The notes: generated by a model from the letters alone, not told the origin. A stretch of 64,000 nucleotides of DNA from an uncultured Chloroflexia bacterium (GCA_963752475.1 CAVVYR010000004.1:207051-271050); one strand, 5' to 3'. Positions 4,768 through 48,471 are shown, numbered from the stretch's first letter. Translations and numbers: made by a program.

Positions 4768-4855
<88 letters not shown>

Positions 4856-5180: not shown

Positions 5181-6286
5181 TTGTTTTGTTAGAGTTTGTT
5201 GTGAGTTTTGTTATGATTGGTTTTTGTTTTGTTTGGTGTATTTTTATGTGGTAGGAGTAGTAGTTTTGTTTGGTTTTATTGTTATAGTAGTGGGTTTGTT
5301 TTGTTGTAATTGTTTGCACGTCGGGATCGGATGATGCTTGGCGGCGTTGGTTTTCGTGTACGTTAAGTGAGTGGTGTGTGGATAGAGGTGGTATGTCTGT
5401 TTTTGTAGTTTGATCACGAGCGGCTCTAGAGGCTTGCTGTGTCTTGCGTAGTGTTTTTGTTGTATTTTTTAGTTTGGTGTGTTGTATTTTTGGGTGTTTT
5501 TTTGGTGTGTGTGTTTTTGTTGAGTATTTTGTTGTGTTGTTTTATGTTTTGTTATTTGGTGATGAGTTTGGTTTTTTTGTAAGAGTTTAGTATTGTGATT
5601 TGTGTTTTGTAGTTGATTGTATTGTAGAGGTGTGTTTGTGTTGGATGTTTAATGTTTTAGTTGTTTTGAATGGTATTATATTGATTGTTGTTTGTGTTTT
5701 GGGAGTTGGTTTGTGTAGTAGGGAGAGATGTTGGTGGTTGTGATATGTGTTAGTGGAGATGATGGTTTTGTTGTGTGGATATAGTTTGATTTGTTTTGGG
5801 TGGAGGTGATTATTTTTGTTAGTTGTGGTGGTAGTTATGGGTTTGGTAGGTATGTGTGTTTGTTTATGGGTAAATTTTTGTTATTGTGATGAAGTAGGGA
5901 TGTAGCACGAGGGACGAGAGCAGGAGATGACCTGCAGCATGACCACTATGGCTATGCGCGAACTTCCACGTCGCGCGCGCTGAACAGCTTCATCAAACCC
6001 TTCCGATCGCTTCTCGGGTTCGCGTTCCAGAACTCAGTCTCACGTCGTTGACATGACGGTCGCTCGCGGCGCGAGCGCGGGCGGGCCTAGGGTAGCGGCT
6101 TGCGGGATATCTGTGGTCCTGAGATGAATGGTCTGCTGCGGTACGGTTCGATAGCACCAGATCGCACCTGGGGATACATATGGGCCACGTTTTCGGCAAC
6201 GTTCGGGCGCGATGTGACCTGCGGCCCTTCACGCTAGTGGCGGTGGTGGTTTAGGGTGTGCGCTCCCGACCCACGAGGAGACCCCG

Positions 6287-22278: not shown

Positions 22279-23684
<1,406 letters not shown>

Positions 23685-25162: not shown

Positions 25163-27706
25163 CTAGCGGGGTCGGGCCTGCGACTGGATACCACCAGCGC
25201 TGAGGACCGGGATGGCCTCGCCCTCGGGCTCCTGCTCGGAGCGCTCGGAACGACGGGCGTAGATGACCAGCATCGACGGCAGCACCAGCACCGAGACGAG
25301 CGCCGAGCCGACGATCGCGACGAGGGTGAGCCAGCCCAGCTGCTGGAAGGGGATGAGCGAAGACTGCGTGAGGATGGCGAAGCCGAGGCTGGTGGTGAGC
25401 GCCGAGGCCAGCAGCGCGGAGCCGGTGGACTGCAGCGTGCGGGTCACCGCCACATCGATGCTCCTGCCCTCGCGCAGGAACTCCTGGAAGCGATGCGTGA
25501 CGTGGATGGTGTAGTCGACGCCGACGCCGATGACGACCGCGGCCAGGGTGGCCGTGACCGGTCCGAACTCGAAGCCCGCGATGACCATGAAGGCGTACAG
25601 GAGGATGACCACGCCACCGACCGGCAGGATGGTCAGCAGGCCGAGCAACGGGCGGCGGTCAGAGACGAAGTAGTTGAGCATGAGCAGCGCGCCGGCGCCG
25701 AGCAGGGCCAGGATGAGGCTCTGGAGCTGGGTGATCGAGGTGGACTCGACCACGGCCGCGTCGATGATCTGCGTGGAGGTCGCGATCGACGCCGCCCCGA
25801 AGGCAGCCTCGAGAGCAGCGGCCAGACCGAGCGCACCGTCGGAACCGGCCTGCGTGGTGAAGGTGTAGAGGGAAGCCTCGGGCGTGTAGACCGCGGCCAG
25901 CGCCTCGGGGGCGGCGGAACGCACGGTCTCGAGGATGGCGGCCACGTCGGTGCCGGCCGGAGCCTGGAGGGAGGAGTCGAGGCCGGCAGCCGCGACGGCA
26001 GCCGCGACGGTCGGGTCGAACTCCGGCGAGCCCTCGGTCGCCAGCGAGGCCACGAGGTCGGGCGCGGACTCGACCAGCGGGGCGCCATCGATGGCCACGA
26101 CATCGTCGAGCTGCCCGGCAGCCGCGGTCGCAGCGACGGCGGCGTTCCAGACGGCGGGCTCGGCCAGGTTGCCCTCGACGAGGACGCTGGTGGTCTCGCC
26201 GAGGCCGCCATCGAAGCGCTCCTCGAGCTCGACCGCGGCGGCGCGGACGGCCGCACCCTCCGGCACGAAGTCGAGGAAGCTGAAGCCGGTGCGCAGGTTG
26301 GTAGCGGTCAGGGCCGCACCCACCAGCACCAGGCCGGCCAGGCCCACAGCAGCCCAGGGGGCACGGCGCGGGATGACGGCGGTGGCGCCGGTGAGGCGAT
26401 CGATCCAGCTGCGGTCGGTGGTGGCGAAGGCCTCTACAGGGAGCTTCTCGCCCTTCTCGGCGCGGCGGTCCAGCAGCACACGCGCGGCCGGGAAGAGCAG
26501 GTTGGCGTAGAGGAAGGCGGCGCCGATGCCGACCGCGGCGAGCACACCGAAGGTCAGCAGTGCGGTCGAGCCGGCGAAGACGTTGGTCAGGAAGCCGAAG
26601 GCGGTCGTCAGCGCCGAGAGCACCAGTGCGCCACCGACGATGCGGCCGCTGCGGGACATGGCCTTCTCGACCGACTCCCCTGCCCCGAGGCCCTTGCGGT
26701 AGGCCGAGTTGAGGTGGATGACGTAGTCGACGCCGAGGCCGACGAGCAGGATCGAGACGATGGAGCTGGGTCCGGAGACATTGCCGATGATGCCCAGGCC
26801 GTCGGGGCCAAGGAGCACGGCCATGCCGTCGGTGGTCGTGATGGCGAACATGACCACGAGCAGGGCCAGCAGCGTGTCAGCGACGGTGCGACGCACGCGC
26901 TGGAAGCGGCGCATGGGCGCGGCGGTCCAGAAGACGAAGAGCAGGGCCAGGCCGATGATGCCGATGGCGCTGAAGAGCAGGAGCGGGATCTCGAAGGCGG
27001 ACTCTTCGCCCGACTGGAAGATGAGGGAGACGGAGAAGGGAAGGGCGTCCACGCCGGCGAAGGAGGCCGACTGGAGGGCGGCATCGAACTCGCCCTGGAG
27101 CGACGCCAGCTGCTCGAAGGCGGCGGTGTCCTCGGGGGTCTCGAAGAAGGCCAGCATGAGGCCCGCGGGAGCGGCTGTGCCCTCCTCGAGGTTGCCCTCG
27201 AAGAGACCGTTGAGCAGTTCCGCCTGGGCTGGCGGCGCGAAAGCGAGACCGGTCTCCAGGAGCGCCTTGACCTCGGCGTCGGTGGTGGGGGCGGGCGCGC
27301 CATTGGTGATGGCGAGCTCGACGGGAGACATGAAGGAGGAGATGGCGCCGATGCCTGGCTGCTCCACGAGGAAGTCGGTCAGGCGCACGCCGTCCACCTC
27401 GACGGCCTGCAGGGTCTCGACGACCGTGTTGGCAGCCTCGAGGCCGGCGGTGCTGACGATGTCGCCGGACTCTGCGACGAGCACGACCTGCAGCGGCTGT
27501 ACCGCGGATTCCTCACCGAACAGCGCCTCGATGCGCTCCGAGGCGGTGATGGCCGGATCCTCAGGTGCGAACTCGGAGCTGTCGTTCGACATCTCGGGGC
27601 GCCCCATGGCGCTGAGCCCGATGGCGACCGCCAGCACCGCGATGATCGCGAGCCACGGCCGCCGAGTCGTAAAGCGAGCGAGACCGCTCGCGATCCATTC
27701 GAACAT
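25163..27706 (-). CDS. MMPL/RND family transporter
   Basis: Two TM bundles with GLGVDY.IH and GVGVDY.IH, SALTT..GF, two large extracytoplasmic loops. Confidence 0.9.
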   Translation of the reverse strand: MFEWIASGLARFTTRRPWLAIIAVLAVAIGLSAMGRPEMSNDSSEFAPEDPAITASERIEALFGEESAVQPLQVVLVAESGDIVSTAGLEAANTVVETLQAVEVDGVRLTDFLVEQPGIGAISSFMSPVELAITNGAPAPTTDAEVKALLETGLAFAPPAQAELLNGLFEGNLEEGTAAPAGLMLAFFETPEDTAAFEQLASLQGEFDAALQSASFAGVDALPFSVSLIFQSGEESAFEIPLLLFSAIGIIGLALLFVFWTAAPMRRFQRVRRTVADTLLALLVVMFAITTTDGMAVLLGPDGLGIIGNVSGPSSIVSILLVGLGVDYVIHLNSAYRKGLGAGESVEKAMSRSGRIVGGALVLSALTTAFGFLTNVFAGSTALLTFGVLAAVGIGAAFLYANLLFPAARVLLDRRAEKGEKLPVEAFATTDRSWIDRLTGATAVIPRRAPWAAVGLAGLVLVGAALTATNLRTGFSFLDFVPEGAAVRAAAVELEERFDGGLGETTSVLVEGNLAEPAVWNAAVAATAAAGQLDDVVAIDGAPLVESAPDLVASLATEGSPEFDPTVAAAVAAAGLDSSLQAPAGTDVAAILETVRSAAPEALAAVYTPEASLYTFTTQAGSDGALGLAAALEAAFGAASIATSTQIIDAAVVESTSITQLQSLILALLGAGALLMLNYFVSDRRPLLGLLTILPVGGVVILLYAFMVIAGFEFGPVTATLAAVVIGVGVDYTIHVTHRFQEFLREGRSIDVAVTRTLQSTGSALLASALTTSLGFAILTQSSLIPFQQLGWLTLVAIVGSALVSVLVLPSMLVIYARRSERSEQEPEGEAIPVLSAGGIQSQARPR

Positions 27707-27828: not shown

Positions 27829-29103
27829 TTAGAGAGCGGGACGGCGCTCCGGTTCGGAGATGGTCAGAGCTGCGATCCCGATGACGATCGGGATAGCCAC
27901 GAGCACGAGCGCCGCGGGGCCGAAACCACCGAGGGCTTCGCTCGGGATCGAGAGCGCGACCGGGCCGATCGACGAGGCCGCTACCGCGACGAGGGCTGCG
28001 ACACCCTGGATGGATCCGATATGCCCCAGTCCGAACCAGCGTGGCAGCAGGGTCGCCACGAGCGGACGACCAGCACCAGCCGCAGCACCCAGGACGACCG
28101 CGTAGACCAGGATCATCGGGCCCGGACTCAGCTGCGCGGCGAGGAGGAGACTCAGCGTCAGCAGCACCATCGAGGTCATGAGCAGGAAGCGGGCGGCGGC
28201 ACGGTCGGCCAATGCACCCATGACCAGGCTGGCGACGAGCGTGCCCAGTACCTGGGGCAGGAACATGGCCGCCGCCTCGGTCACGCTCAGGCCCTGGTCG
28301 CCGAGCAGCGAGATCTGGTGGAAGTTCAGCGCGGTCACCAGCATCGAGGTCGCGCCGATCACGAGGCTCAGCACCCAGAAGCGTGGCTGGCTCAAGGCCT
28401 CGCGGCGCGTGAGCGAGACGGCAAGCAGAGGTGGCGGGTCCGACGGGTGCGGTGCGGGATCACCGTCCGGGTACTGGCCCACATCCGATGGCCGATCGAT
28501 GATGCCGAAGCGCGCGATCGGCACCACCACCAGCCAGATGGCGAACCCCGACAGGATCCAGCTGACACGCCAGTCGAACAGGCCGATCGACGCACCCAGG
28601 ATGATCGGCGTCAGCGACATCAGGACGGCCGTGGCCGTGGTCGCGATGCCGAAGGCCAAGCCTCGACGGCGCTCGAACCAGGGCGTGATGGCGAGGGTGC
28701 TGACCAACTGTAGCGAGCCCTGTCCCATCCAGCGGATGAGGGTGAAGCCGACGATCAGCGTGATGAACCCCTGGACGCCGCTCATCACCAGCAGGCCCAG
28801 GCCGAACCCGAGCCCGATGAAGGTCATGGCCCGCCGTGCGCCGATGCGGTCGATACGGCGCCCGACCGGGAGCAGCGCGATGGCGCCGGCCATCGTGCCG
28901 ATGAGATACGCCAGCGACAGCTCGGAGCGCGTCAAGCCGAGCGTCTCGATCATGGGGTCGACGAAGACCGAGACACCGACCGTCTGGCCGGGGCCGGTGA
29001 GCGCGCCCGTGATCGTCGCGAGCAGGACGATGCGCCAGCCGACGAAGTCGCGCCAGCCCAGCGACGCGCGCGGATTCGTGGGGTTCGTAGTGGAATCGTG
29101 GAT
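27829..29103 (-). CDS. MFS transporter
   Basis: GPGQT.GVSVF, GRRIDRIG, WFERRRGLA, GALADR, WFGLGHIGSIQG. The frame is open upstream of the track start; RBS GGAGAG precedes an ATC at 29103. Confidence 0.85.
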   Translation of the reverse strand: MHDSTTNPTNPRASLGWRDFVGWRIVLLATITGALTGPGQTVGVSVFVDPMIETLGLTRSELSLAYLIGTMAGAIALLPVGRRIDRIGARRAMTFIGLGFGLGLLVMSGVQGFITLIVGFTLIRWMGQGSLQLVSTLAITPWFERRRGLAFGIATTATAVLMSLTPIILGASIGLFDWRVSWILSGFAIWLVVVPIARFGIIDRPSDVGQYPDGDPAPHPSDPPPLLAVSLTRREALSQPRFWVLSLVIGATSMLVTALNFHQISLLGDQGLSVTEAAAMFLPQVLGTLVASLVMGALADRAAARFLLMTSMVLLTLSLLLAAQLSPGPMILVYAVVLGAAAGAGRPLVATLLPRWFGLGHIGSIQGVAALVAVAASSIGPVALSIPSEALGGFGPAALVLVAIPIVIGIAALTISEPERRPAL

Positions 29104-31669: not shown

Positions 31670-34600
31670 TCAACCGACCTCGGGGAACTCGCGCTCGGCG
31701 GTCTTCTGGACGTCCGCGATGGCGGCGAACGAGCCACGCAGCAGCTCACGCTGCATCGCCGTCAGAGATGACAACTCCACCACGGAGGTCGGCTCACGCC
31801 CGGCGCGCACGTCCTCGAGCTGCGCCTGCAGGCGCAGGCCCATGAGGAAGTCGTAGGCATCGGTGATCTCTTCGAGGCTCCCCGCCGGCAGCAGCTGGCG
31901 ATCGGCGAGCGCGATGATGCGGTCCATCGTGTGCGTGGCCACGATCCGCTGCCGCTCGGCGTAGACGCGAGCGAAAGCCACGATCGGCTGCAGCGCGTCC
32001 TTGAGATCGAACTTGCCGCTCGACTCGGAAGCCCCACCGAGGTAGATGTTCCCAGGCAGCCGCAGCGGCGGCCGGAACGAGAGCGCGTTGCGAGCCAGCA
32101 GGAACTGCACGCCCCGCTGCTCGGGCAGGGTGGCATGGACGTGCCGCCGCAACTCGCCGACCAGCGCGGCGTCACCCCGGATGAGCCGGAAGTCGAGGAA
32201 GATCGAGAGGTCGGTCAGGTCCTGCGCTTCGGCGTGCCGGAGCCAGGCGTCGTACGTCTCGATCCAGCTGGCCAGCGAGCGGCACCACTTGGCGTCGCCG
32301 GCCATGACCTGCCCGCGACACTCGGGGTAGCCCGCGGTGGCCAGCCCCTCACCGACCCGTCGACCGAGCTCGAGGAACCACGACTGCAGCTCGTCCGCAT
32401 CGGCCTCCTCGGGCAGGTCGTAGACCAACCCGGAGTCCTGGTCGCTGATGAGGTGGACCTCCCCCCTGCCCTGGCTGCCGAGTGCGAGCCAGGCGAAGGG
32501 CGCCGGCGCCGGTCCCATCGCCTCGAGCGCCAGCTCCAGGATCCGCACCGTGGCGGCATCGAAGACCGAGGTCAGCGTGCTGTTGACCGGGCGCGGCTTG
32601 GACGTCGAGCTCAGCAGGGTCGCCGCCAGCGAGACCGTGCGCTCGCACCGGCGCGCGACCTCCTCGACCGACGAAGCCCGCCCGATGTCCCGGAGTACCA
32701 CCAGCGGCGCATAGCGCGGTGAGCGGATCAGCGCTTCCTTGTCGACGACGGCGGTGATGGCACCCGACGCGTCCTCCACCGCCAGATGCTTGACCCCGGC
32801 CGTCTCCATGTGCAGCAACGCCTCGTACACCGGCGCGCTCTGCGGCAAGCGGATGAGCGGTGCGGTCATGACGGTCTCGACCGGGTCGTCGACGGCCTTG
32901 CCCGCGGCCACGACGCGCGAGCGGATGTCGTGGTCGGTGACGATGCCGATGGGTGCCCCGGAGCCGCTGGCCACGAGCGCTGCCGTGGCCCCGTGCTCGG
33001 TCATCGTGGTGGCCACGTCGCCCAGCCGCTCCTCCATGGGCACGACGATGGGCTCCACGCCCAGGGCCTCGATCGATTCGTGCAGGAAGAGCAACGAGGC
33101 CCGCAGCTGCTGGACCTCACGATCGGCCGCGCCGCCACGAGCGGCGGTCACGTCAACCAGCAGGCCATCGATCCAGGCCGGCTCGTCCTCTTCATCGCGG
33201 ATGAGCACGCCCGACAGCAGCACCGACCGCGGGCCTGACGGTGTGTCGATGGCCAGGAACTGGTCGCGCACCTCACCCGTATCGAGCAACCGTCGGTAGG
33301 CACGCGCGTACTCGTCGGAGCTGGCGAAGCAATCGGCCAGGGCCAGCTGCCCCCCCTCCTCCACGGCCACCAGCGCGAGCAGCTCCCGCGCGGCCGGACT
33401 CAAGTCCACGAACACACCGCGTCTCGCGGCCACCGCCCGGAAGACCCCGACCGATGAGCCGATGGCAGAGGCGTCCGAGCGGGCCGTCGCCGCCGCCGTC
33501 ACGTCGCGGGCCAGCAGGATGTGGCCGGTCTGATCGCCGAACTCGACGGGCTCCAGCGTCAGCACGCACTCCACCGTCGAACCGTCCGAACGCGTCAGCA
33601 GGCCCTCGCGTGCGACGCCCAGCACGGCCGACTCGTGATCACCGTCATCGAGCAGCTCCCAGAGGGCCTCGTTGCCCTCGCGCGGCAGCACATCGACCGG
33701 CTCCAGGAAGTCCAGTTGTCGCGATCCGTATCCGAGCAGCTCGAGGAACGTGGGGTTGGCATATCGCAGGCGCCCATCGACCACGAGCAATGTGCCCTCC
33801 GACGTGGCCTCGACGAGAGCGTGATAGCGCGCGTTCGAGTCTCGCAGCCGCTCCACGCCCTCCTCGCGCCGACGCTCGATACGCAGCGACTGCTGCAGCA
33901 CGAAGGCCAGCAGCAGGGCGATGACACCGCTGATGGCGAGGGCGGCCAGGAGCAGGTTCCGCTCGATGCGCTCGATCTCGGCCTGCACGTCATCGACGTA
34001 CATGCCCGTGCCGATGACCCAATCCCAAGGCTCGAAGCCCTTGACGTACGACTCCTTCGGCTCCAGCCGCTGGACATCGTCGAAGCGCTGGAAGACGTAG
34101 CCGACGTAGCCCTCGTCCTGCTCGTCGACGAGCTCCGCGAACTGGACGAAGATGGGCTCGCCGCGCGGGTCGGTGTAGTCGGAGATGTCCTCGCCCTCGA
34201 GGTCCGGCCGATACGGGTGCATGACCATCGTGGGCTCGGCATCCTGGATCCAGAAGTAGTCGAGCCGGTCCTCCCCGTAACGCAGCTCCGAGACCACGCC
34301 GGCGGCCGCCGCCTGCGCCTCCTCGCGGGTGAGGGTGCCGGCCCGTTCGTCGGCCTCATAGGCGGCGAGCACGCTCCAGGCCGAGTTCGTGAGCTCGCGG
34401 ATCATCTCCCGCTTGCGCTCGACGAGCGACTCCTCGAACGAGGGCAGGATCAGGCCCCAGAAGGCGATGAGGAAGAGCGCCAGCGCGGCCACCGCCGGGA
34501 GCACCACGCGCAGGACGAAGGGGCGACGACTGAGGCCTCCGGGGCTCCCCGGGGGCTCGGCCGAGGCAGGAGCGGCGGGGTCCCCGTCGCCCGGCGAGAC

Positions 34601-35344
34601 CTTCGACGCCAGGCCCGGCCCATCGAGCACGGCCGCGCGGAATCGGACCCAGTCCTCGTGGGGCATCTCGATCCCCAGGGCCTCGCTACCGAGCCCGCGA
34701 ACGGCGTGGTAGTCGGTGCCGCCGCTGACGAGGAGGTCGTGTCTGGCCGCCAGCGTACGGAGGGCCTCACGCTCCCCGGGCTCGAACTCTTCGTAGACCG
34801 CCTCGATACCGTCGAGCCCCTTGGCGCGCAGCTCGAGCACGAAGCGCTCAAGGTCGGCGATATCGCGTTCGTAGACGAGTGGGTGGGCCAGGAAGACCTT
34901 GCCGCCGGCACGGTGCAACAGGTCGATGGCGTCGCCGATCTCGAGACGACCGTCAGGAGCGGCGCTGCCGTTCTCGTGGTGGTCGCCGCGGGTGCCCGCC
35001 GCCCGGATGGAGCCCTCGATGGACTGGGTGTCGGTCGAGCGATGAGCGCGGATCGAGGCCAGCGTCGCGGTGAGGTCGGGGTACTCGGGATCGAAGCCGT
35101 AGGCCACGAGGTGGATGACCCGCCCATCGTGCTGCGTCGTCAGCTCGATGCCCGGGAGGGAGGCCACACCTCGCGCGTCGAGCGCGTCACGGAACTCGGG
35201 CCAGCCAGCGATCGTGTCGTGGTCGCAGAGCGCCGCGAAGCGCACGCCGGCTTCGGCCAATCGCTTGGCCAGGGCAGCCGGTGCTAGCGCGCCATCGGAG
35301 TGGAGCGTGTGCGCGTGCAGGTTGAGGAAGACGCCGTCAGCCAT
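31670..35344 (-). CDS. Membrane signalling protein: PHP phosphoesterase - TM - Cache - TM - PAS - CBS pair - DUF294 nucleotidyltransferase - DUF294_C
   Basis: PHP: LHAHT.HSDG, DHD, GIE, IH, AHP, GGTDYH. Cache: LRYG...DYFWI...MVMHP...KESYVKGFEPWDWVIGTG.Y. NTase: LGSQGRGE..ISDQDSG. DUF294_C: FDFR...GD, DLK. Confidence 0.88.
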   Translation of the reverse strand: MADGVFLNLHAHTLHSDGALAPAALAKRLAEAGVRFAALCDHDTIAGWPEFRDALDARGVASLPGIELTTQHDGRVIHLVAYGFDPEYPDLTATLASIRAHRSTDTQSIEGSIRAAGTRGDHHENGSAAPDGRLEIGDAIDLLHRAGGKVFLAHPLVYERDIADLERFVLELRAKGLDGIEAVYEEFEPGEREALRTLAARHDLLVSGGTDYHAVRGLGSEALGIEMPHEDWVRFRAAVLDGPGLASKVSPGDGDPAAPASAEPPGSPGGLSRRPFVLRVVLPAVAALALFLIAFWGLILPSFEESLVERKREMIRELTNSAWSVLAAYEADERAGTLTREEAQAAAAGVVSELRYGEDRLDYFWIQDAEPTMVMHPYRPDLEGEDISDYTDPRGEPIFVQFAELVDEQDEGYVGYVFQRFDDVQRLEPKESYVKGFEPWDWVIGTGMYVDDVQAEIERIERNLLLAALAISGVIALLLAFVLQQSLRIERRREEGVERLRDSNARYHALVEATSEGTLLVVDGRLRYANPTFLELLGYGSRQLDFLEPVDVLPREGNEALWELLDDGDHESAVLGVAREGLLTRSDGSTVECVLTLEPVEFGDQTGHILLARDVTAAATARSDASAIGSSVGVFRAVAARRGVFVDLSPAARELLALVAVEEGGQLALADCFASSDEYARAYRRLLDTGEVRDQFLAIDTPSGPRSVLLSGVLIRDEEDEPAWIDGLLVDVTAARGGAADREVQQLRASLLFLHESIEALGVEPIVVPMEERLGDVATTMTEHGATAALVASGSGAPIGIVTDHDIRSRVVAAGKAVDDPVETVMTAPLIRLPQSAPVYEALLHMETAGVKHLAVEDASGAITAVVDKEALIRSPRYAPLVVLRDIGRASSVEEVARRCERTVSLAATLLSSTSKPRPVNSTLTSVFDAATVRILELALEAMGPAPAPFAWLALGSQGRGEVHLISDQDSGLVYDLPEEADADELQSWFLELGRRVGEGLATAGYPECRGQVMAGDAKWCRSLASWIETYDAWLRHAEAQDLTDLSIFLDFRLIRGDAALVGELRRHVHATLPEQRGVQFLLARNALSFRPPLRLPGNIYLGGASESSGKFDLKDALQPIVAFARVYAERQRIVATHTMDRIIALADRQLLPAGSLEEITDAYDFLMGLRLQAQLEDVRAGREPTSVVELSSLTAMQRELLRGSFAAIADVQKTAEREFPEVG

Positions 35345-35419: not shown

Positions 35420-37153
35420 TCAGCGCACACGCACGCGGATGGGCTCGCTGTCGGCCGGCCAGCGGTCGGTCGTACCGGGATAGCTCACCACGATGTCGTA
35501 TCGGCCGGGCCCCAGCTCTCGCAGGGAAGCGGCGAAGCGCCCGTCCGCGTCGGTCGTCACCGTGCGCAGTGACACCGGACGCGTCGCGAACCAGATGTTC
35601 TCGCGCTGCGTCTCCTGACCGCTTTGGTCGAAGAAGATGAGTGAGACGTAGCCCGAACCAAGTGCCTTCGCCGGCACGTCGAGCGTGGCTGCGAACTCGA
35701 ACCTGGCGCCCGACCGGACCTTGAAGCGCGCGCCGTCGACCATGAGGGTCTCATGAGGTTTGGCCTTGATGCGCATCGCGGGCCCGTCCTCGTTGGTCAC
35801 GGCACTGGCCACCCCACTGCCGTAGGACCCCCAGCTGTCGAGGCCGCGCGAGAAGCGCGCGTTGGGCACCCTGTTCTTGCCCGTGCCCTCCTTGTAGCTG
35901 ACCTCGGAGATGCGCACATCGACCGGTGATGGCGTTCCGCCCTCGGTGTTGGCTCGGACCGCGATGAGCGCCTTCCTCGCCGCTTCGGGCACGACACCGC
36001 TGAAGCGATGGCGCTGCCTGGCCCTGCCGATGGGCTCAGCCGTCAGGGTGAGGCGTTCACCGGCCACCGGCAGGTCGGCGGTGGTCGCCATCCGGCCCTC
36101 GATGCGCATGGCCTGGATGGCCCGGGCCTTGAGCGCGGTCCGCTCGCCGAAGTACTGCTTCACGCGTCCGCTCGAGGTGTTCAGGTCGTCGTCCGGGAGG
36201 GTCCGGTCGGGCTGGCTGTGCCACGACCACAGGCCGGCCATCTGCGGCGTCCCGCCATGCACCTGCTCGTACCTCACCGCGTGTGCCATCTGCTGTTCGA
36301 GCCACGTGTCGTTCTGCCGCGAGTCCTCGCTGCCCAGGTAGAGCATGCCGAAGGGGACCCCACGTGCATCGGCGAGGGCTTCGATCGCCATCACGCGCTC
36401 CGGCCAGTCCTCGATGCGCCAGTCGACATCGATGTTGAGGAACGCGAGGGGCTCTCCCGTTCGCGCCTCCCATGTGTCCAGCCAGGTGGCGAAGTCACGC
36501 TCGGAGAGGTAGAGATGGCTGACGACCGGCTCGATCGACCCGACCGCGATGCCCGGGAAGTACCGCCGCACCTCCCCGACCCAGGCCCAGACCTCATCGA
36601 CCACCTCCTCTACGGTGTACCCGCAGGCACGGAGGCCAGCGTAGACGTGCCCGTTGGCGAAGGGCTGGTCGAGGGTGAGGTAGTCGAGCCGCCCACCCAG
36701 CCGGTGGATGCGCTCGATCTCGATGAGGTCGTACGGCCCCTCCATCGACTCCCGGTGGTCGCACACATCAGCGCCCTTCCAGGTCAATGGCTCCACCTCC
36801 AGCCCGAGCGGCAACTCGTGCTCGTCCAGCCAGGCGAACAGCTCGCGCAGCTGCTCGTCGGTCGCGCTGTAGCGGAACATCCAGGCGTGCATATGGAAGG
36901 CGTCGATCTGCTGAGCGACCTCCCGCCAGGGCGCATCGTCCGCCCACAGGTCCCAGTAGTCGTCCGCGCCATCTGGCAACGGGTAGTGGGAGATCTCGTC
37001 CGGCAGCGGTGGGACCGGCTGATATGAGACGAACGGCGCGTCCGAGAAGTCGAGCGCTTCATCCTCCTCCACCTGCGCCACGGCCGGCACCGCGACCGAT
37101 GAACCGAGCAGGACCGTGGCGACCAGCGCCATGAGCGACCGCGTCTTGACCAT
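35420..37153 (-). CDS. Secreted multidomain protein (possible TIM-barrel hydrolase-like domain, carbohydrate-binding-like domain, Ig-like tail)
   Basis: Signal peptide AVA-QV; Trp/acid-rich N-terminal domain; NRVPNARFSRGLDSW; TTDADGRF; RBS GAAGGAG. Confidence 0.6.
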   Translation of the reverse strand: MVKTRSLMALVATVLLGSSVAVPAVAQVEEDEALDFSDAPFVSYQPVPPLPDEISHYPLPDGADDYWDLWADDAPWREVAQQIDAFHMHAWMFRYSATDEQLRELFAWLDEHELPLGLEVEPLTWKGADVCDHRESMEGPYDLIEIERIHRLGGRLDYLTLDQPFANGHVYAGLRACGYTVEEVVDEVWAWVGEVRRYFPGIAVGSIEPVVSHLYLSERDFATWLDTWEARTGEPLAFLNIDVDWRIEDWPERVMAIEALADARGVPFGMLYLGSEDSRQNDTWLEQQMAHAVRYEQVHGGTPQMAGLWSWHSQPDRTLPDDDLNTSSGRVKQYFGERTALKARAIQAMRIEGRMATTADLPVAGERLTLTAEPIGRARQRHRFSGVVPEAARKALIAVRANTEGGTPSPVDVRISEVSYKEGTGKNRVPNARFSRGLDSWGSYGSGVASAVTNEDGPAMRIKAKPHETLMVDGARFKVRSGARFEFAATLDVPAKALGSGYVSLIFFDQSGQETQRENIWFATRPVSLRTVTTDADGRFAASLRELGPGRYDIVVSYPGTTDRWPADSEPIRVRVR

Positions 37154-37245
37154 CGCGCTCTCCTTCGTGCCACGGCCGGGGCGACCGAGGAGCGCCAAAC
37201 ACTAGCGAGCAGGTGCCAGAACGACAACCGGGCGGCCGACCGTCG

Positions 37246-37284: not shown

Positions 37285-37456
37285 GCTCCCAACCGCACCG
37301 ATGGACCGGAGTGGGCCAGACCGGCCCATCCGGTTCGGGGCCACATGGCCCTATCAGCGCCCGTCGGCGCAGGCGTTAGGTGGAGTCATCACCGCGCGAC
37401 ACGCAGGCGGCTCGCCGGCCGTCCGTGACGCGGGGTTGATTCGTGAGGGAGCACGA

Positions 37457-37990
37457 ATGACTACCGTGACGGAGACCACGGACGGGGGGATGGTGGACCA
37501 GGATTCCCTCGATCGCATCATCGCTTCACAGGCTGGTCGACCGGGTGCCCTGCTGGGCATCCTGCAACGGCTCCAGGAACAGAGCCAGAACAAGTACCTG
37601 CCGATGGGCACGCTCGAGTACGTGGCCAAGCGCACCGGCATCCCCCAGTCGCAGGTCTTCTCCGTCGCGTCCTTCTACTCCCTCTTCAACCTCGAACCGC
37701 AGGGCGACCACATCGTGGCCATCTGCCGCGGCACGGCCTGCCACACCCGCGGCTCGCGCCCGCTGCTGCAGCGTGTGAAGCTGCAGCTGGGCCTGCGTGA
37801 CGCCGGCATCGACGCCGACAAGGTCAGCCTGACCACGCCGGACCTCGGCTTCACCGTGCGCACGGTGGCTTGCTTCGGACAGTGCGCGCTGGCGCCGGTG
37901 GTCGAAGTCGACCACGCCATCCGCGGACACGTCACCGAACAGGCCCTCATCCGCGAGGTCGAGACACTCCGAAAGCGAGGCGGCCGATGA
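37457..37990 (+). CDS. hoxE: Bidirectional hydrogenase/NuoE-like 2Fe-2S subunit
   Basis: VASFYSLF, CRGTACH, VACFGQCALAPV. Confidence 0.85.
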   Translation: MTTVTETTDGGMVDQDSLDRIIASQAGRPGALLGILQRLQEQSQNKYLPMGTLEYVAKRTGIPQSQVFSVASFYSLFNLEPQGDHIVAICRGTACHTRGSRPLLQRVKLQLGLRDAGIDADKVSLTTPDLGFTVRTVACFGQCALAPVVEVDHAIRGHVTEQALIREVETLRKRGGR

Positions 37991-40900
37991 GGATCGCCGA
38001 TCTCGCCGAGTTCAACGCCGTCCGCGAAACCGGCCTGGCCAAGCTCACGCCCGATCGTCCGCGCATCGCGGTGGGCATGGGCACCTGCGGGAGCGGGAAC
38101 GGCGCCGAAGGCGTTCACACCGCCTTCAAGTCGGCCATCGAGGCCCGGGGCCTGGATATCTCGCTCGCGCCCGTCGGCTGCTTCGGCTTCTGCGCCGAGG
38201 AACCCATCGTCAACGTCTGGGTGCCCGGCCAGCCGCTGCTCATGCTGAGGCGCGTCCAGCCCGAGCACGTCGACCACATCCTGGAGGCCGTCGAGCGCGG
38301 CGTGCTCCCGACCGCCGAGCTCATCCTGTGCAAGATCGAGGAGTGGGACCATCTCACCGGGCACGTGCGCTACGGCACCGGCTACGAAGACATCCCGTCC
38401 TGGGACGAGATCCCCTTCTTCGAGGGCCAGCTGAAGATCGCCCTGCGCAACTGCGGCCTCATCAGCCCTGACGACATCGAGGAGTACATCGCGGTCGGCG
38501 GCTACCAGGCGCTGTACAAGGTATTGATCGATGACAACCCCGCGGGCGTCGTGGAGTCGATCAAGGCAGCCAAGCTGCGCGGTCGCGGCGGCGCCGGCTT
38601 CCTGACCGGTATCAAGTGGGAGTTCCTGGCCAAGGCCCCGGGCCCGGAGAAGTACCTCATCTGCAACGCGGACGAGGGCGATCCCGGCGCCTACATGAAC
38701 CGCAACGAGATCGAGTCGGACCCGCACGCGCTGATCGAGGGCATGGTCATCGCGGGCTACGCCACCGGTGCCAGCAACGGCATCATCTATGTCCGCGCCG
38801 AGTACCCCATCGCGGTCATGCGCCTGGAGCGCGCAGTGGCTCAGGCTCGGGCCTACGGCATCGTGGGCACGGACGTCATGGGTCGTGGCTTCGACTTCGA
38901 CATCCAGATCGTCGAGGGTGCGGGAGCCTTCGTCTGCGGCGAGGAGACCGCGCTCATCGCCTCGCTCGAGGGCAAGGCCGGCCGGCCTCGGCCGCGTCCG
39001 CCGTTCCCGGCCCAGAAGGGCCTCTACGGCAAGCCCACCAACATCAACAACGTCGAGACCTGGTACAACGTCGCGCCCATCGTAGCCAAGGGAGCTGCCT
39101 GGTTCAGCGACACCGGCTCGGCCAAGAGTGCCGGCACCAAGGTCTTCTCGCTGGTCGGCAAGGTCAGGAACACGGGCCTCGTCGAGATGCCCCTGGGGAC
39201 CCCGCTATCCAAGTTCATCTACGACGTCGGCGGCGGCGCCCCGGGTGGACGCGAGATCAAGGCCGTGCAGACGGGCGGACCGTCCGGTGGCTGCATCCCG
39301 ATCGACCTCTTCGACACCCCGGTCGACTACGAGACGCTGGCCCAGCTGGGCTCGATCATGGGCTCGGGCGGCATGGTCGTGCTGGACGAAGACAACTGCA
39401 TGGTCGACGTCGCCCGCTACTTCGTGGAGTTCACCCACTCCGAGTCGTGCGGCAAGTGCGTGCCCTGTCGCGTAGGCCTCGACAAGGCCCTGGCTATGCT
39501 CGACGGTTTCACCCACGGCACGGCCACGCTCGAGGACCTCGACGCCCTCGACGAGCTCTGTCGCATGACTCGCGACATGAGCCTCTGCGCCCTTGGCGGG
39601 AGCGCACCAAACCCGGTGCTCACGAGCCTGCGGCACTTCCGCCACGAGTTCGAGGACCACGTCCTCGCGAAGCGCTGTCGTGCCGGTGTCTGCGAGGACC
39701 TCGCACTCAGCCCGTGCGAGAACTCGTGCCCGCTGCACATGAACATCCCGCGCTTCCTGCAGTTGTACAAGGAGGATCGACTCGAGGAGGCCTTCCTGTC
39801 CGTGGTGCTGGACAACCCGCTGCCGGCCTCGACCGGTCGCGTCTGCCAGCATCCTTGTGACGATCGCTGCCGGCGCGAGGCCATCGACGAAGCCGTGAAC
39901 ATGCGCGAGGTCCATCGCGCCATCGCCGACCAGGTCTACCTGACCGACCGCTTCGAGCCCCTCGTGGCCCGAGTGCTCGAACAGAAGATGCCGGCCAGCG
40001 GCAAGCACGTCGCGGTCGTCGGCGCCGGCCCGACCGGCCTCACCTTCGCCTACTACATGGCCCTGCGCGGCCACGAGGTCACCTGCTTCGACTCTCGGCC
40101 GGCCGCCGGCGGCATGCTCCGCTACGCCCTGCCCGAGTACCGCCTGCCACAGGCTGTGCTGGACAAGGAGATCGAGCTCATCGAGCGCACCGGTGTCACG
40201 TTCCGCTTCGGCGTCGAGGTCGGAAAGGACGTCAGCCTCAACGAGGTCGACGAGGAGTTCGACGCCGTGTTCCTTTCGATCGGCACCTGGAAGGAAGCCT
40301 GGGTCCACCTCGCCGGAACCGAGTTGACCGGCGTCGTCCCGGCACTCCCCTTCCTCGAGTCCATGGCCCGCGAGGAGGATGTTCCGGTGGGCCGCAACGT
40401 CGTGGTCATCGGTGGCGGCAACGCGGCCGTCGACTCGGCCCGGTCCGCCCGCCGCCTGGGCGCTGACGTGACCATCGTCTATCGCCGCGAGCGCAAGGAC
40501 ATGCCGGCCATCGAGGAAGAGGTCGTGGCGGCTGAGCACGAGGGCGCGAAGATCGCCTATCTGCAGGCGCCCAACCGCATCATCGGCAACGCCGAGGGGA
40601 AGGTCCGGGCCATCGAGGTCGAGCGCACGCGCCCCGGTGAGTTCGACGAGTCTGGCCGACGCCGACCGGTCCCGACCGGCGAGATCATGCGCATCGAGTG
40701 CGACACCGTGATCCTCGCGGTCGGCGAGCGTGTCGACCCCGACTTCGCCGATGCCTCCGGGCTGCGGCTCAACGACGACGAGGAGACCCTCGAGGTCGAC
40801 CGCTACTCGCTCGAGACCAGCCGTGACCGCTTCTACGCCGGTGGCGACCTCATCACCGGCGCTTCGAACGTCTCGAACGCCATGGGCATCGGCAAGAAGG

Positions 40901-41142
40901 CCGCGCGCAACATCGACCGGCGCCTGATGGACCGGCTCACGCCCAGCGTGCTGCCCGAGTTCATCTACCAGATGGAGCCACCCGATCCACCCGCGGAGGG
41001 CGGCCGCAACACCCCTGCCGAGCTCCCGGCCGACGAGCGGGTCCGCTCGTACGCCGAGGTCTCGACCGGGTTCACACCCCAGGTCGCGCTCGACGAGGCG
41101 CACCGCTGCCTGCGCTGCGACATCCGCAGTGTCGAGTCCTAG
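37987..41142 (+). CDS. hoxF: NuoF/HoxF diaphorase subunit fused to a GltD/NfnB-like FAD/Fe-S oxidoreductase (~1051 aa)
   Basis: GRGGAGF, NADEGDPGA, GAFVCGEETAL, ESCGKCVPCR; then PCENSCP, GRVCQHPC, GAGPTG, IGGGNAAVD, YRR, RCLRCD. Confidence 0.85.
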   Translation: MRIADLAEFNAVRETGLAKLTPDRPRIAVGMGTCGSGNGAEGVHTAFKSAIEARGLDISLAPVGCFGFCAEEPIVNVWVPGQPLLMLRRVQPEHVDHILEAVERGVLPTAELILCKIEEWDHLTGHVRYGTGYEDIPSWDEIPFFEGQLKIALRNCGLISPDDIEEYIAVGGYQALYKVLIDDNPAGVVESIKAAKLRGRGGAGFLTGIKWEFLAKAPGPEKYLICNADEGDPGAYMNRNEIESDPHALIEGMVIAGYATGASNGIIYVRAEYPIAVMRLERAVAQARAYGIVGTDVMGRGFDFDIQIVEGAGAFVCGEETALIASLEGKAGRPRPRPPFPAQKGLYGKPTNINNVETWYNVAPIVAKGAAWFSDTGSAKSAGTKVFSLVGKVRNTGLVEMPLGTPLSKFIYDVGGGAPGGREIKAVQTGGPSGGCIPIDLFDTPVDYETLAQLGSIMGSGGMVVLDEDNCMVDVARYFVEFTHSESCGKCVPCRVGLDKALAMLDGFTHGTATLEDLDALDELCRMTRDMSLCALGGSAPNPVLTSLRHFRHEFEDHVLAKRCRAGVCEDLALSPCENSCPLHMNIPRFLQLYKEDRLEEAFLSVVLDNPLPASTGRVCQHPCDDRCRREAIDEAVNMREVHRAIADQVYLTDRFEPLVARVLEQKMPASGKHVAVVGAGPTGLTFAYYMALRGHEVTCFDSRPAAGGMLRYALPEYRLPQAVLDKEIELIERTGVTFRFGVEVGKDVSLNEVDEEFDAVFLSIGTWKEAWVHLAGTELTGVVPALPFLESMAREEDVPVGRNVVVIGGGNAAVDSARSARRLGADVTIVYRRERKDMPAIEEEVVAAEHEGAKIAYLQAPNRIIGNAEGKVRAIEVERTRPGEFDESGRRRPVPTGEIMRIECDTVILAVGERVDPDFADASGLRLNDDEETLEVDRYSLETSRDRFYAGGDLITGASNVSNAMGIGKKAARNIDRRLMDRLTPSVLPEFIYQMEPPDPPAEGGRNTPAELPADERVRSYAEVSTGFTPQVALDEAHRCLRCDIRSVES

Positions 41143-41151
41143 GAGGCCGTC

Positions 41152-41859
41152 GTGAACGACAAGGTCATGGTCCGTATCGACGGTGAGGTGATCTCGGCCA
41201 CCGCGGGACAGAGCGTCCTCCAGGTCGCGCGGGAGAACGGCAAGTACATCCCGTCCCTCTGCTACATGGAGGGGATCTCGCCACAGGGCTCCTGTCGTCT
41301 GTGCATGATCGAGGTGCAGGGCGCCAAGAAGCTGCAACCTGCCTGCACGACACCGGTGTCGGAAGGCTTGGCGGTGACGACCCACACCGCGCAGCTCGCG
41401 GGCTACCGCAAGATGGCCCTGGAGTTGCTCTTCGCCGAACGCAACCACATCTGCGCGGTGTGCGTCAGCTCCGGGCACTGCGAGCTGCAGTCGCTGGCGC
41501 AGGAGCACGGCATGACCAACACGCGCTTCGACTACAGCTTCCCCAACTACACGCCTGACACCTCGCACCCGCGCTACGTCTTCGACCCCAACCGCTGCGT
41601 GCTCTGCGCTCGCTGCGTGCGCACCTGTGCCGAGATCGAGGGCGCACACGTGTGGGACATCGCCGGACGAGGCGTGGCCTCCGGACCGGTGACGGAGCTG
41701 CAACGACCGTGGGGTGAAGCGATGAGCTGTACCAGCTGCGGCAAGTGTGTCCAGGCCTGTCCGACCGGCGCGCTGGCCGAGAAGGGCTGGGCCGTGGAGG
41801 AGATGACCAAGCAGAAGAGCGTCGTGAGCACCCTCGACACCATGCGCAGGGGCCAGTGA
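41152..41859 (+). CDS. hoxU: Bidirectional hydrogenase Fe-S subunit
   Basis: IPSLC, GSCRLC, ERNHICAVC, RCVLCARCVRTC, CTSCGKCVQACPTGAL. Confidence 0.92.
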   Translation: MNDKVMVRIDGEVISATAGQSVLQVARENGKYIPSLCYMEGISPQGSCRLCMIEVQGAKKLQPACTTPVSEGLAVTTHTAQLAGYRKMALELLFAERNHICAVCVSSGHCELQSLAQEHGMTNTRFDYSFPNYTPDTSHPRYVFDPNRCVLCARCVRTCAEIEGAHVWDIAGRGVASGPVTELQRPWGEAMSCTSCGKCVQACPTGALAEKGWAVEEMTKQKSVVSTLDTMRRGQ

Positions 41860-42401
41860 TGGAACAGGAAGTGCAGAAGGCCACGATCGGGACCTGCTGG
41901 CTCGACGGCTGCTCCGGCTGTCACATGTCGCTGCTGGACATGGACGAAGCCATCGTCGACGTGCTGGCCAAGGCCGACATCGTGTTCGGCCCGCTCGTCG
42001 ATGCCCAGGAGTGGCCCGAGGGCGTCGACGTCGCGGTCATCGAGGGTGCGGTGTCGAGCCAGGATGACCTCGATCTCTTGACCGAGGCTCGTGAACGCTC
42101 GTCGATCGTGGTGGCTCTGGGCGACTGCGCAGTCACCGGCAACGTGCCCACGATGCGCAACGGCATCCCCACGCGCTCGCTGCTCGAACAGATCTACGTC
42201 GACTCGGTCGACGAGCAGCCGCAGATCCCCACCGTCGGGGTGCCGCCGCTGCTCAAGCAGGCAGAGCCGCTCCAGGCCCACGTCAAGGTCGATGTCCACG
42301 TGCCGGGCTGCCCGCCCAGTGCCGAGTCGATCCTCTACGTCATCAGTGAGCTACTGGAGGGCCGCGTGCCCGACCTCGGCTCGAAGCAGCGATTCGGCTA
42401 G
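41859..42401 (+). CDS. hoxY: [NiFe] hydrogenase small subunit
   Basis: WLDGCSGCHMS, EGAV, GDCAVTGNV, PGCPP; TGATG overlap. Confidence 0.92.
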   Translation: MEQEVQKATIGTCWLDGCSGCHMSLLDMDEAIVDVLAKADIVFGPLVDAQEWPEGVDVAVIEGAVSSQDDLDLLTEARERSSIVVALGDCAVTGNVPTMRNGIPTRSLLEQIYVDSVDEQPQIPTVGVPPLLKQAEPLQAHVKVDVHVPGCPPSAESILYVISELLEGRVPDLGSKQRFG

Positions 42402-42411
42402 GAGGCCGAGC

Positions 42412-43833
42412 ATGGCGACGATCAACATCCCCCACGTCTCGCGCATCGAGGGTCATGCCTCCATCACCATCGACCTCGACGAATCCGGGAACGTGGCCGA
42501 CACGCAGTTCTCGGTCACCCAGATCCGTGGCTTCGAGAAGTTCGTGGCCGGCCGGCCGTACTACGAGATGCCCTCCATCACCGCGCGCATCTGTGGCATC
42601 TGCCCGGTGTCGCACCTGCTGGCCTCGTCCAAGGCGTGTGATGAGATCATGGCCGTGCGCGTCCCGCCGACCGCGGCCAAGCTGCGCGAGCTGCTGCACA
42701 TGGCGCAGATCGTGCAGTCACACGCGCTCTCCTTCTTCCATCTGTCCGCGCCCGATCTGCTGCTGGGCATGGACTACGACCCCAAGCTGCGCAACGTGGC
42801 CGGGCTGCTGGCCAAGCACCCGGCGGTGGTGCAGGACGGCGTGCGGCTACGGAAGTTCGGCCAGCAGGTCATCGAACGCCTGGGTCGCGAGCGCGTGCAT
42901 CCCTCGTGGACCGTGCCCGGTGGCGTGAACTCCGAGCTCGATCCCCAGGCTCGCGAGAAGACCCTCGAGGAATGGGACGAAGCGCTGGACATCGTGCAGC
43001 GCACCCTGGAGCTGTGGAAGGGCACCATCAATTCCTTCCCCGAGGAGGTCGCCACCTTCTCGAACTTCCCCTCGATGTTCTGCGGCACGGTCTCGCCCGA
43101 TGGCGATCTCGAGCTGTACGACGGGACGCTGCGCTTCCGTGACGCGGCCGGCGAGATCGTGGCCGACCACATCGAAGCGGCCGACTACGCCACCTACATC
43201 GGCGAAGCGACGATGCGGGACTCGTACCTGAAGGCGCCGTACTACAAGCCGTTGGGCCTCGATGAAGGCGTCTACCGCGTGGGGCCGATGGCGCGCCTCA
43301 ACGTCTGCGACCGGATCTCGACACCCCTGGCCGATGCCGAGCTGCAGGAGCTGCGCCAGCGGCTAGGCCGCGTGGTGCCGAGCAGCTTCCACAATCACTA
43401 CGCCCGGCTCATCGAAGCCCTCTACGGGCTGGAGCGCATGAAGCAGCTGCTCGAAGATCCCAGGATCCTCGACACCAAGGTGCGCGCACACGCCGGGGTC
43501 AACGACCTCGAGGGCGTGGGCATCATCGAGGCTCCTCGAGGCACGCTCATCCACCACTACAAGGTCAATGACGACGGGGCCATGACCTGGGCCAACCTCA
43601 TCGTCGCGACCGGGCACAACAACCTGGCCATCCGACGGGGCGTGCACGACGTGGCCACTCACTTCATCGACGGCAAGGAGATCCGGGAGGGCGCGGTCAA
43701 CCGCGTCTCGGCCATCGTCCGCGCCTTCGACCCGTGCCTCTCGTGCTCGACACACCAACTGGGACAGGCCGCCATCGTGATGACGCTGCGGGGCCCCGAC
43801 GGTGAGGTCCTCGACGAAAAGGGCACCGTCTAG
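42412..43833 (+). CDS. hoxH: [NiFe] hydrogenase large subunit (group 3d-like)
   Basis: [22 protein letters not shown] (L1), [17 protein letters not shown] (L2) plus a C-terminal extension. Confidence 0.95.
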
Positions 43834-48358: not shown

Positions 48359-48471
48359 CCCGGGATCGATCCTCCTCGCCATCGGGCTCGGCCACACGGT
48401 CGGGCCCGATGCGCGTTCGCCCCATCGGGCTTGAAAGGTGCCTGTAATGTCACACCGTGACAGTGCACGAT

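Follow-up and report, generated by a model that had tools for sequence, protein, structure and literature searches.

A membrane-bound Cache-PAS-CBS-DUF294 nucleotidyltransferase, fused to a PHP phosphoesterase and encoded beside probable monocarboxylate transporters, in Chloroflexota

Introduction

DUF294 proteins (COG2905) are widespread, form part of the acetate/short-chain-acid regulon of well-studied bacteria and have no established reaction. Their described form is a cNMP-CBS-DUF294 nucleotidyltransferase (NTase) encoded next to an RNase T-like exonuclease, as in the Pseudomonas pair PP_0354/PP_0353. COG2905 is reported to be cofit with a DUF4212-SSS symporter, and Price et al. speculated that COG2905 is needed to express the symporter. 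This work deals with a gene found in a stretch of 64,000 nucleotides from an uncultured Chloroflexia bacterium (GCA_963752475.1 CAVVYR010000004.1:207051-271050; the window, whose positions are counted from its first letter). The gene occupies positions 31670..35344 on the minus strand, and its product, called here the receptor, is a fused, self-sensing version of the NTase and exonuclease pair known from the short-chain-acid regulon of Pseudomonas. The pair has been described but not characterised, and the membrane form with PHP and Cache is a variation on it. The full-text literature searched describes neither the DUF294 reaction nor this membrane form, in line with the statement of the initial annotation that no characterised example of the architecture was known.

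The other relevant systems are carboxylate sensors of the Cache type and PHP ribonucleases. PscD and McpP are reported to have acetate, glycolate, propionate, pyruvate and lactate as ligands, and the crystal structure of Adeh_3718 contains bound acetate. The RNase AM paper describes three arginines (Arg107, Arg110 and Arg141) that hold a buried 5'-phosphate, Phe161 that stacks on the base, and Arg201 at the scissile phosphate. The fused form narrows the DUF294 problem: its likely signal is a C2/C3 carboxylate, the NTase is physically tied to a phosphoesterase, and a few candidate targets lie beside the gene. As a Rosetta-stone fusion it makes the long-open function of DUF294 directly testable.

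Domain Organization and Topology

The gene is a single uninterrupted open reading frame (ORF) of 1224 codons plus stop (P0001). The G + C content of its third codon positions is 0.90, which is typical for real genes of this contig (68% GC), and its start codon is plausible, the PHP domain having its H-x-H motif from residue 10 on. Scans for sigma-70 promoters and intrinsic terminators near the gene found none. The encoded domains are, in order and all on the minus strand, a cytoplasmic PHP phosphoesterase that has nine metal ligands and whose insertion domain is shortened (residues ~5-240; 34625..35332), a Pro/Ala-rich linker of low model confidence (241-273; 34526..34624), a first transmembrane segment (274-308; 34421..34525), an extracytoplasmic sCache_2 domain (309-462; 33959..34420), a second transmembrane segment (~463-489; 33878..33958), two PAS domains (505-622; 33479..33832 and 637-736; 33137..33436), a CBS pair (764-882; 32699..33055), the DUF294 NTase core of the Pol-beta type (904-1039; 32228..32635) and the DUF294_C helical domain (1082-1220; 31685..32101).

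These assignments rest on Pfam and NCBIfam profiles. The sCache_2 match (PF17200) lies between the two transmembrane segments, with E 2.8e-37 and 128.5 bits, and the PAS domains are recognised as PAS_9 (516-617) and PAS_4 (637-736). DUF294 (PF03445; E 5e-37, 127.3 bits for a cut-off of 21) is followed by DUF294_C (PF10335; E 2e-34, 118.7 bits for a cut-off of 22.5). The CBS pair is placed directly amino-terminal of the DUF294 core, the order also found in the short DUF294 proteins described below. The Pfam match to PHP is limited to residues 9-79 (29.4 bits for a cut-off of 26.4), and the full domain is better recognised by NCBIfam models for 3',5'-nucleoside bisphosphate phosphatase (NF041577, 119.5 bits) and RNase RNM/RNase AM (NF047791, 107.4 bits), neither of which reaches its equivalog cut-off (400 and 375, respectively). 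The cNMP-binding domain of canonical DUF294 proteins (PF00027) has no Pfam match in the receptor, which has instead the Cache and two PAS domains, and the Pfam scan found no RNA-binding domain.

Hydrophobic segments 274-308 and 460-489 stand on either side of the Cache domain. Arg-rich stretches precede the first and come after the second and, by the positive-inside rule, they place PHP and everything from the PAS domains onward in the cytoplasm and Cache outside. The cytoplasmic ends are a trinuclear-metal PHP phosphoesterase (amino terminus) and a DUF294 NTase with the fold of GlnE and DrrA (carboxyl terminus). Both the domain order and the topology had been read in this way in the initial annotation, which named no strand and had also reported complete PHP ligands and an intact NTase motif; these prove invariant in all 55 full-length sequences aligned (36-87% identity to the window protein), the set used for all conservation counts given below.

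Reality and Distribution of the Fusion

The in-frame fusion rests on independent assemblies. A word-index protein search with the receptor gave 244 matches, and the architecture was determined for the best 120. PHP (PF02811), Cache, PAS, CBS and DUF294 occur together in 114 of these 120 clusters, in proteins of ~1220-1280 residues encoded on contigs of up to 1.7 Mb that originate from NCBI, ENA, JGI and Logan. The remaining six have no precomputed PHP match: three are full-length (100% of the query aligned), another two are truncated, and the last shows PHP only weakly. Two proteins of 1078 and 1104 residues (P0139 and P0161) were considered as PHP-less forms and discarded, their gene calls beginning inside PHP at residues 157 and 134, respectively. 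The fusion is therefore not an assembly artefact, being seen uninterrupted on many independent contigs of different sources, which settles the reservation that the PHP frame needed confirmation. Frame errors do exist elsewhere in the contig (at 22279-23684 and 48457-53683, see below), but an artefact of assembly or gene calling, or a fusion with one dead enzyme, has negligible probability and is refuted by the independent contigs and by the catalytic residues of both enzymes, invariant in 55/55 sequences. The gene codes for an intact membrane protein under purifying selection.

A metagenome scan with the family alignment yielded at least 570 confirmed relatives among the 600 pattern matches listed, of which 80 loci were kept (37-83% identity to the window protein). 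A second word-index search, with residues 275-760, examined 8000 candidates, of which 756 clusters reached E<=1e-10; the same family dominates and no other architecture is present in the best 120. Source names assign the family to Chloroflexota (Limnocylindrales, Anaerolineae and 'Chloroflexia'). The distribution is patchy. The gene is present in 14 of 36 other genomes of the window's genus, many of which are incomplete metagenome-assembled genomes (MAGs), in none of 23 genomes from other genera of the same family, and as a full-length copy only in G000 and G061 when 401 genomes are sampled evenly across the phylum. A search around G061 at the levels of order and class covered five genomes and yielded nothing further. 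The genome of the window has a single DUF294 gene.

The Cache Sensor Domain

The Cache domain is clearly similar to those of PscD (5G4Y; phmmer E 1.8e-31) and Adeh_3718 (4K08; E 3.5e-29). The PscD ligand pocket, as given in the PscD paper, is composed of Y90, W92, H103, F126, Y143, W145 and K156. Their equivalents by alignment in the window protein are Y363, W365, H376, F399, Y416, F418 and K430. Six of the seven are identical, and those six are invariant in 55/55 sequences; the seventh is F418 in the window protein, where 53 of 55 relatives have the W of PscD (W145). The outward-facing sCache_2 domain is thus predicted to carry the binding pocket of C2/C3 monocarboxylate sensors. The match of this pocket to that of C2/C3-carboxylate sensors makes an acetate-like C2/C3 monocarboxylate the likely ligand, consistent with the carboxylate-type Cache proposed from the initial reading of the sequence.

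The PHP Phosphoesterase Domain

Nine metal ligands (H10, H12, D17, H42, E67, H78, H154, D211 and H213) are invariant in 55/55 sequences and map one to one to H13, (H15), D20, H45, E72, H83, H198, D255 and H257 of RNase AM. A confident AlphaFold2 model of residues 1-262 (predicted local distance difference test, pLDDT, 88.4) was compared to known structures with Foldseek. BAD_1165, RNase AM, Cv1693 and Vibrio RNase AM are matched at E 1e-18 to 1.5e-17, the PHP domains of Pol III at E 1e-8, and the protein-tyrosine phosphatase YwqE/CpsB only at E 0.02.

The residues that bind the 5'-phosphorylated substrate in RNase AM, mapped by phmmer sequence alignment only, are less well kept. The position of Arg107 is R102 (R in 42/55 sequences). 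Arg110 is replaced by an acidic residue in the window protein, and only 6/55 sequences have R there. V, L, A, T and M are the five commonest residues where RNase AM has Arg201, R not being among them. H78 and H154 are separated by a median of 79 residues vs 115 in RNase AM, an insertion domain shorter by ~36 residues that leaves Arg141 and Phe161 without counterpart. The catalytic machine is thus kept, and the pocket for a 5'-phosphorylated nucleotide appears largely gone. The predicted loss of this pocket fits a substrate other than 5'-phosphorylated RNA.

The DUF294 Nucleotidyltransferase Module

The NTase residues G956, S957, G959, R960, E962, D968, D970 and D1051 are invariant in 55/55 sequences. 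The first of them, with G956 S957 followed by D968-x-D970, correspond to the Pol-beta motif G[GS]-x(9-13)-D-x-[DE], and D1051 would supply the third carboxylate of the Pol-beta site. Judged by these residues and by the PHP ligands, both enzymes look active.

The AlphaFold2 model of the CBS-NTase region (residues 740-1224) is likewise confident, with a pLDDT of 85.9. GlnE and DrrA are the sole structures without CBS among its top fold matches. The GlnE amino-terminal domain, DrrA and the GlnE adenylylation domain are found by Foldseek at E ~2e-8 to 4e-8, and VIA-align superposes the NTase plus helical domain onto the GlnE amino-terminal domain with Z 26.8 over 325 residues, onto DrrA with Z 25.2 over 295 residues and onto the GlnE adenylyltransferase (AT) domain with Z 25.1 over 308 residues. 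This agrees with the GlnE/GlnD kinship that had been recognised at the outset. Sequence profiles of these families give scores below their cut-offs (PF03710, GlnE, 13.0 bits for 24; PF08335, GlnD_UR_UTase, 14.2 bits for 21), so that the receptor is not a member of either. No RNA-tailing or oligonucleotide-synthase fold is present among the matches listed, a list that is filled by CBS proteins and hence provides no evidence of absence. The modelled fold, shared with GlnE and DrrA, favours a protein acceptor. Complex prediction between the PHP domain and the CBS-NTase module, carried out without controls, gave a score of 0.00 in both runs, which counts neither for nor against their association.

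Short DUF294 Forms and Interchangeable Hydrolases

A short DUF294 form of 480-690 residues is found in 35 genomes of the phylum. It matches only residues ~750-1220 of the receptor, with 28-34% identity, and carries a cNMP-binding domain. Twenty-eight of its loci were fetched, and 70 of their 142 called ORFs scanned. A gene for an RNase_T (DEDDh) exonuclease adjoins the short DUF294 gene in 20/28 loci, mostly overlapping its stop, which bears out for this phylum the usual DUF294-DEDDh adjacency stated in the initial annotation. Acetyl-CoA synthetase is encoded divergently in five loci of one genus, a SSF symporter in one locus, and a CitMHS transporter in three kin. The gene order in L010 (G267:C1) is SSF symporter, CBS-DUF294, single-domain response regulator and a 321-residue RNase_T with an amino-terminal extension. 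Note that L012 and L017, which come from two related genomes, have a RecJ-like gene (DHHA1 + RecJ_OB) as the immediate upstream neighbour of the short cNMP-CBS-DUF294 gene.

Membrane forms were explored starting from a Cache-PAS-CBS-DUF294 relative without amino-terminal enzyme, found in a Bacteroidales MAG (L037). With this protein as query, an exhaustive phmmer search of the library retrieved 17,899 proteins at E<=1e-3, of which 2,992 pass E<=1e-30. The amino-terminal module of the 150 best representatives was typed using hidden Markov models built from the PHP domain and from the neighbouring exonucleases: 109 have none, 32 have PHP, two have DEDDh (P0201 and P0244) and seven are unassigned. 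Pfam profiles run on 36 long representatives identified PHP (E<=1e-8) in 15, RNase_T in two and AP_endonuc_2 in one. The latter (P0300) has an AP_endonuc_2/xylose-isomerase-like TIM barrel (E 1.9e-20) in the amino-terminal slot. The AP_endonuc_2 family also contains non-nucleases, and this barrel is only a hint of a further alternative hydrolase. The amino-terminal slot thus accepts different phosphoesterase modules interchangeably, PHP among them. The swap of non-homologous hydrolases in one slot argues that phosphodiester hydrolysis is an integral half of the system.

Genomic Neighbourhood

Genes were called in 94 loci with a simple caller and clustered by BLASTP. The family gene is present in 88 of these loci, 78 of which have its upstream gene on the contig and are informative. 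An ActP/MctC-type monocarboxylate symporter (SSF family) neighbours the family gene in 61/78: directly upstream on the same strand with gaps of -20 to 237 nt in 43, divergently oriented in 14 and at another place of the locus in four. It is absent from 17. The symporter scores 430 bits with the MctC model (cut-off 670) and 384 bits with ActP. A gene of ~100-134 codons, one copy of which matches DUF485 (YjcH family), is found ahead of the symporter in 30 loci. The family gene is thus usually the last of, or divergent from, a pair coding a DUF485 (YjcH-like) protein and an ActP/MctC-like symporter. A transporter of the major facilitator superfamily (MFS) of the L-lactate type (315.5 bits, cut-off 320) is also present in four loci. 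The symporters beside the family gene (e.g., L050:8049-9944) are ~630 residues long and have an insertion of ~165 residues at ~198-375, without family match, that separates the two halves of the SSF profile. It was considered as a cytoplasmic target and dropped since, by helix count, it follows the sixth transmembrane helix and would probably face outward.

Eleven of the 17 symporter-less loci form the window's own subclade (>=65% identity). In nine of these eleven, and in none of the 77 others, a hox-type [NiFe] hydrogenase operon adjoins the receptor gene. Downstream, the subclade loci have an MMPL transporter and an MFS transporter whose best match, a weak one, is to the lactate/OFA family. 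Both layouts exist within the window's genus. The order DUF485-SSF-family gene is found in L126 (G434), with a 7-nt gap, and again in G404. In G410 the symporter is directly upstream, without a called DUF485 gene, and the hox layout is that of G422 and G426. The hydrogenase was dropped as a functional partner, its adjacency being confined to close kin. The monocarboxylate transporter is the family-wide partner and hox a lineage-specific context. The initial annotation had suggested a check for co-occurrence with hox or acetate genes: the neighbour conserved across the family is the ActP/MctC-type symporter, and hox is confined to the subclade, which lacks the symporter.

In the window itself, the gene 75 nt upstream of the receptor gene (35420..37198, minus strand) codes for a secreted-looking protein of 592 residues with a signal-peptide-like amino terminus. 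It has no Pfam or NCBIfam match, and a 57%-identical homologue occupies the same position in L035. The divergent hox-type operon for a NAD(P)-linked [NiFe] hydrogenase, the subclade-specific neighbour, follows at 37301..43833 (plus strand). It includes a HoxF/NuoF-like subunit fused to a GltD-like NAD(P)H/FAD module (1090 residues, 37870-41142), a fusion that is also kept in L032 and L036. Downstream of the receptor gene, the MFS transporter (27829..28953, minus strand), which comes directly after the receptor gene in L032 and L034, has L-lactate SfMCT/OFA as its best family, at a score far below cut-off. A further downstream neighbour, conserved in the subclade, is a MMPL/HAE3-type RND transporter (25163..27706, minus strand).

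Proposed Function and Alternative Explanations

The assignable hydrolases that partner DUF294, DEDDh and PHP, split a phosphodiester into a free hydroxyl and a 5'-phosphate. Such cleavage undoes, by hydrolysis, the transfer of a nucleotidyl group to a hydroxyl. The explanation favoured here, tentatively, is a switch that adds and removes a nucleotide, gated by carboxylate and energy state and tied to monocarboxylate uptake, i.e., a reversible nucleotidylylation of protein. The NTase would move a nucleoside monophosphate (NMP) from the triphosphate to a hydroxyl of the target, and the PHP domain would cut the NMP phosphodiester again, freeing 5'-NMP. The balance of the two reactions would be set by an acetate-like ligand outside, through Cache, and by the redox, metabolite and adenine-nucleotide state inside, through PAS and CBS. 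By analogy to GlnE acting on glutamine synthetase and GlnD acting on PII, the target would most likely be a protein that takes up or activates monocarboxylates, with the symporter next door, its DUF485 partner and acetyl-CoA synthetase as candidates. In the window's subclade the symporter link would be replaced by the MCT-like MFS transporter downstream and the hox hydrogenase operon upstream. That writer and eraser act on one and the same substrate is what we infer.

A more specific proposal, possible but more doubtful, is that these proteins are a new class of one-component transmembrane receptors that reversibly nucleotidylylate the neighbouring ActP/YjcH-type transporter or acetyl-CoA synthetase. 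Their output would be neither phosphorylation, nor methylation, nor a cyclic nucleotide; external acetate and energy charge would tune monocarboxylate uptake post-translationally, and PHP, DEDDh and the TIM barrel would be analogous erasers recruited independently.

Several observations weigh against reversible protein nucleotidylylation. No DUF294 protein has a known substrate. The top fold match is the adenylyl-removing domain of GlnE, practically level with the adding domain, and this near-tie makes the catalytic direction unreadable from the fold. The nearest PHP structures are RNA and nucleotide enzymes and not the PHP protein-tyrosine phosphatases, and in other lineages DUF294 is usually partnered by an RNase T-like exonuclease, which equally points to a nucleic-acid substrate. 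With 109/150 membrane forms having no fused hydrolase, an eraser need not be obligatory. The window locus lacks the symporter and has an MCT-like MFS gene three genes downstream; the only close ActP-like gene of its genome is on a different contig. In the Pseudomonas studies, mutants of PP_0354/PP_0353 are described as mildly defective on propionate and pyruvate, and Pflu5625 as a member of the CrbS/R regulon whose mutant has no phenotype.

The same PHP and exonuclease observations feed the leading alternative, considered unlikely, in which the substrate is RNA: the NTase would add a short 3' tail or a nucleotide to RNA (e.g., the symporter mRNA or a small RNA) that PHP or DEDDh trims, and external carboxylate would set the expression of monocarboxylate uptake genes post-transcriptionally. 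The nearest enzymes to the PHP domain are Cv1693 and RNase AM, a 5'-3' exoribonuclease, DEDDh replaces PHP in the same slot and an RNase T-like enzyme is the partner elsewhere. Pol-beta NTases include the poly(A) and CCA-adding enzymes. The need of COG2905 for symporter expression, a speculation of Price et al., would also be accommodated. Yet the NTase and helical domain match the protein AMPylators GlnE and DrrA with Z 25-27 over ~300 residues, and RNA-tailing enzymes are missing from the fold matches listed, though CBS proteins fill that list. The Pfam scan did not find an RNA-binding domain, and most of the RNase AM 5'-phosphate pocket is not conserved. The predicted degradation of this pocket weakens a plain RNase AM reading.

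Production of a nucleotide messenger is judged distinctly unlikely. The NTase would make a nucleotide signal, such as a linear di- or oligonucleotide, which PHP would degrade, providing a new output class alongside GGDEF/EAL receptors. A synthase and a hydrolase in one sensor would mirror the GGDEF-EAL logic, short 5'-phosphorylated oligoribonucleotides are substrates of PHP enzymes of the RNase AM/Cv1693 type and of Orn-type DEDDh enzymes, and the canonical DUF294 proteins have a cNMP-binding domain. Against this, the nearest folds are those of the protein-modifying GlnE and DrrA, the conserved neighbours are transporters only, with no candidate signal receptor among them, and the 5'-phosphate pocket of PHP appears degraded.

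Less probable again is that the two enzymes are not antagonists. PHP would then assist the NTase by removing pyrophosphate or the 3'-phosphate of 3'-phosphoadenosine 5'-phosphate (pAp) or of another nucleotide derived from coenzyme A (CoA), or it would be a tethered housekeeping phosphatase. Enzymes of the Cv1693 type hydrolyse pAp and NF041577 is the best match of the domain (119.5 bits). pAp is reported to arise from CoA metabolism, which is linked to acetate activation. However, the score is far below the equivalog cut-off of 400, and the slot or separate gene holds elsewhere a DEDDh exonuclease, neither a pyrophosphatase nor a 3'-phosphatase. The remaining probability falls to something else.

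Other Features of the Window

Three further regions of the window are of note. At 3750-6000 (plus strand) ~2.2 kb are nearly devoid of C (0-30 per 250 nt), with 46-78% T and normal G, a T run of ~100 nt and repeats of 21, 42 and 63 nt. This composition is what full C-to-T conversion of DNA with 68% GC would give, and it may reflect hypermutation, deamination or an artefact of sequencing or assembly. The coding sequence of a class II tRNA synthetase of the asparaginyl/aspartyl type is divided between two frames (22279.. and 23226-23684). In L033 and L035 a single gene of 467 codons matches both parts, which indicates a probable frame error of the assembly. The gene for a BTAD-Ser/Thr-kinase-nSTAND1 protein (48457-53683) also appears broken across frames: positions 1-85 of the nSTAND1 profile end one ORF, and positions 97-378 begin an overlapping ORF in another frame.

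Comparison with Known Systems

The receptor combines features of several described systems without coinciding with any of them. Its NTase core and helical domain have the fold of GlnE, GlnD and the AMPylation domain of Legionella DrrA/SidM (Z 25-27 to GlnE and DrrA), and GlnE and GlnD further resemble it in weak Pfam matches, in the opposed adding and removing activities that are proposed for it, and presumably in the type of the motif G-x-G-R-x-E...S-D-x-D. The identity of these enzymes to the receptor NTase is only 13-16%. Removal is carried out by a second NTase domain in GlnE and by an HD domain in GlnD, whereas the receptor has PHP, and its locus has no PII or glutamine synthetase context.

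The sensor is shared with PscD (5G4Y/5G4Z), Adeh_3718 and McpP, at the level of the predicted pocket (6/7 residues in the window protein, 7/7 in 53/55 relatives), but the output of the receptor is neither an MCP (methyl-accepting chemotaxis protein) signalling domain nor a histidine kinase. The PHP domain has the fold of RNase AM (YciV), Cv1693 and BAD_1165 (Foldseek E 1e-18 to 9e-18) with the nine ligands of their trinuclear site, and it retains the first 5'-phosphate arginine of RNase AM and Cv1693 (R102, 42/55). It differs from this group by scores far below the equivalog cut-offs (107-119 vs 375-400 bits) and by its fusion to a membrane sensor, and from RNase AM by the lack of conserved equivalents of Arg110, Arg141, Phe161 and Arg201.

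The DEDDh-Cache-PAS-CBS-DUF294 fusions (P0201 and P0244) match the receptor in slot order, sensor modules and NTase, and have an amino-terminal hydrolase whose fold is non-homologous to PHP. The cNMP-CBS-DUF294 and RNase T-like pair (PP_0354/PP_0353; Pflu5625; COG2905) of the CrbS/R (MxtR/ErdR) regulon has in common with the receptor the CBS, DUF294 and DUF294_C core, a phosphodiesterase partner and, across the family but not at the window's own locus, a linkage of the ActP/acs type. Unlike this pair, the receptor is membrane-bound, has Cache and two PAS domains as sensors where the pair has a cNMP-binding domain, and carries its hydrolase fused in cis, as a PHP instead of a DEDDh enzyme.

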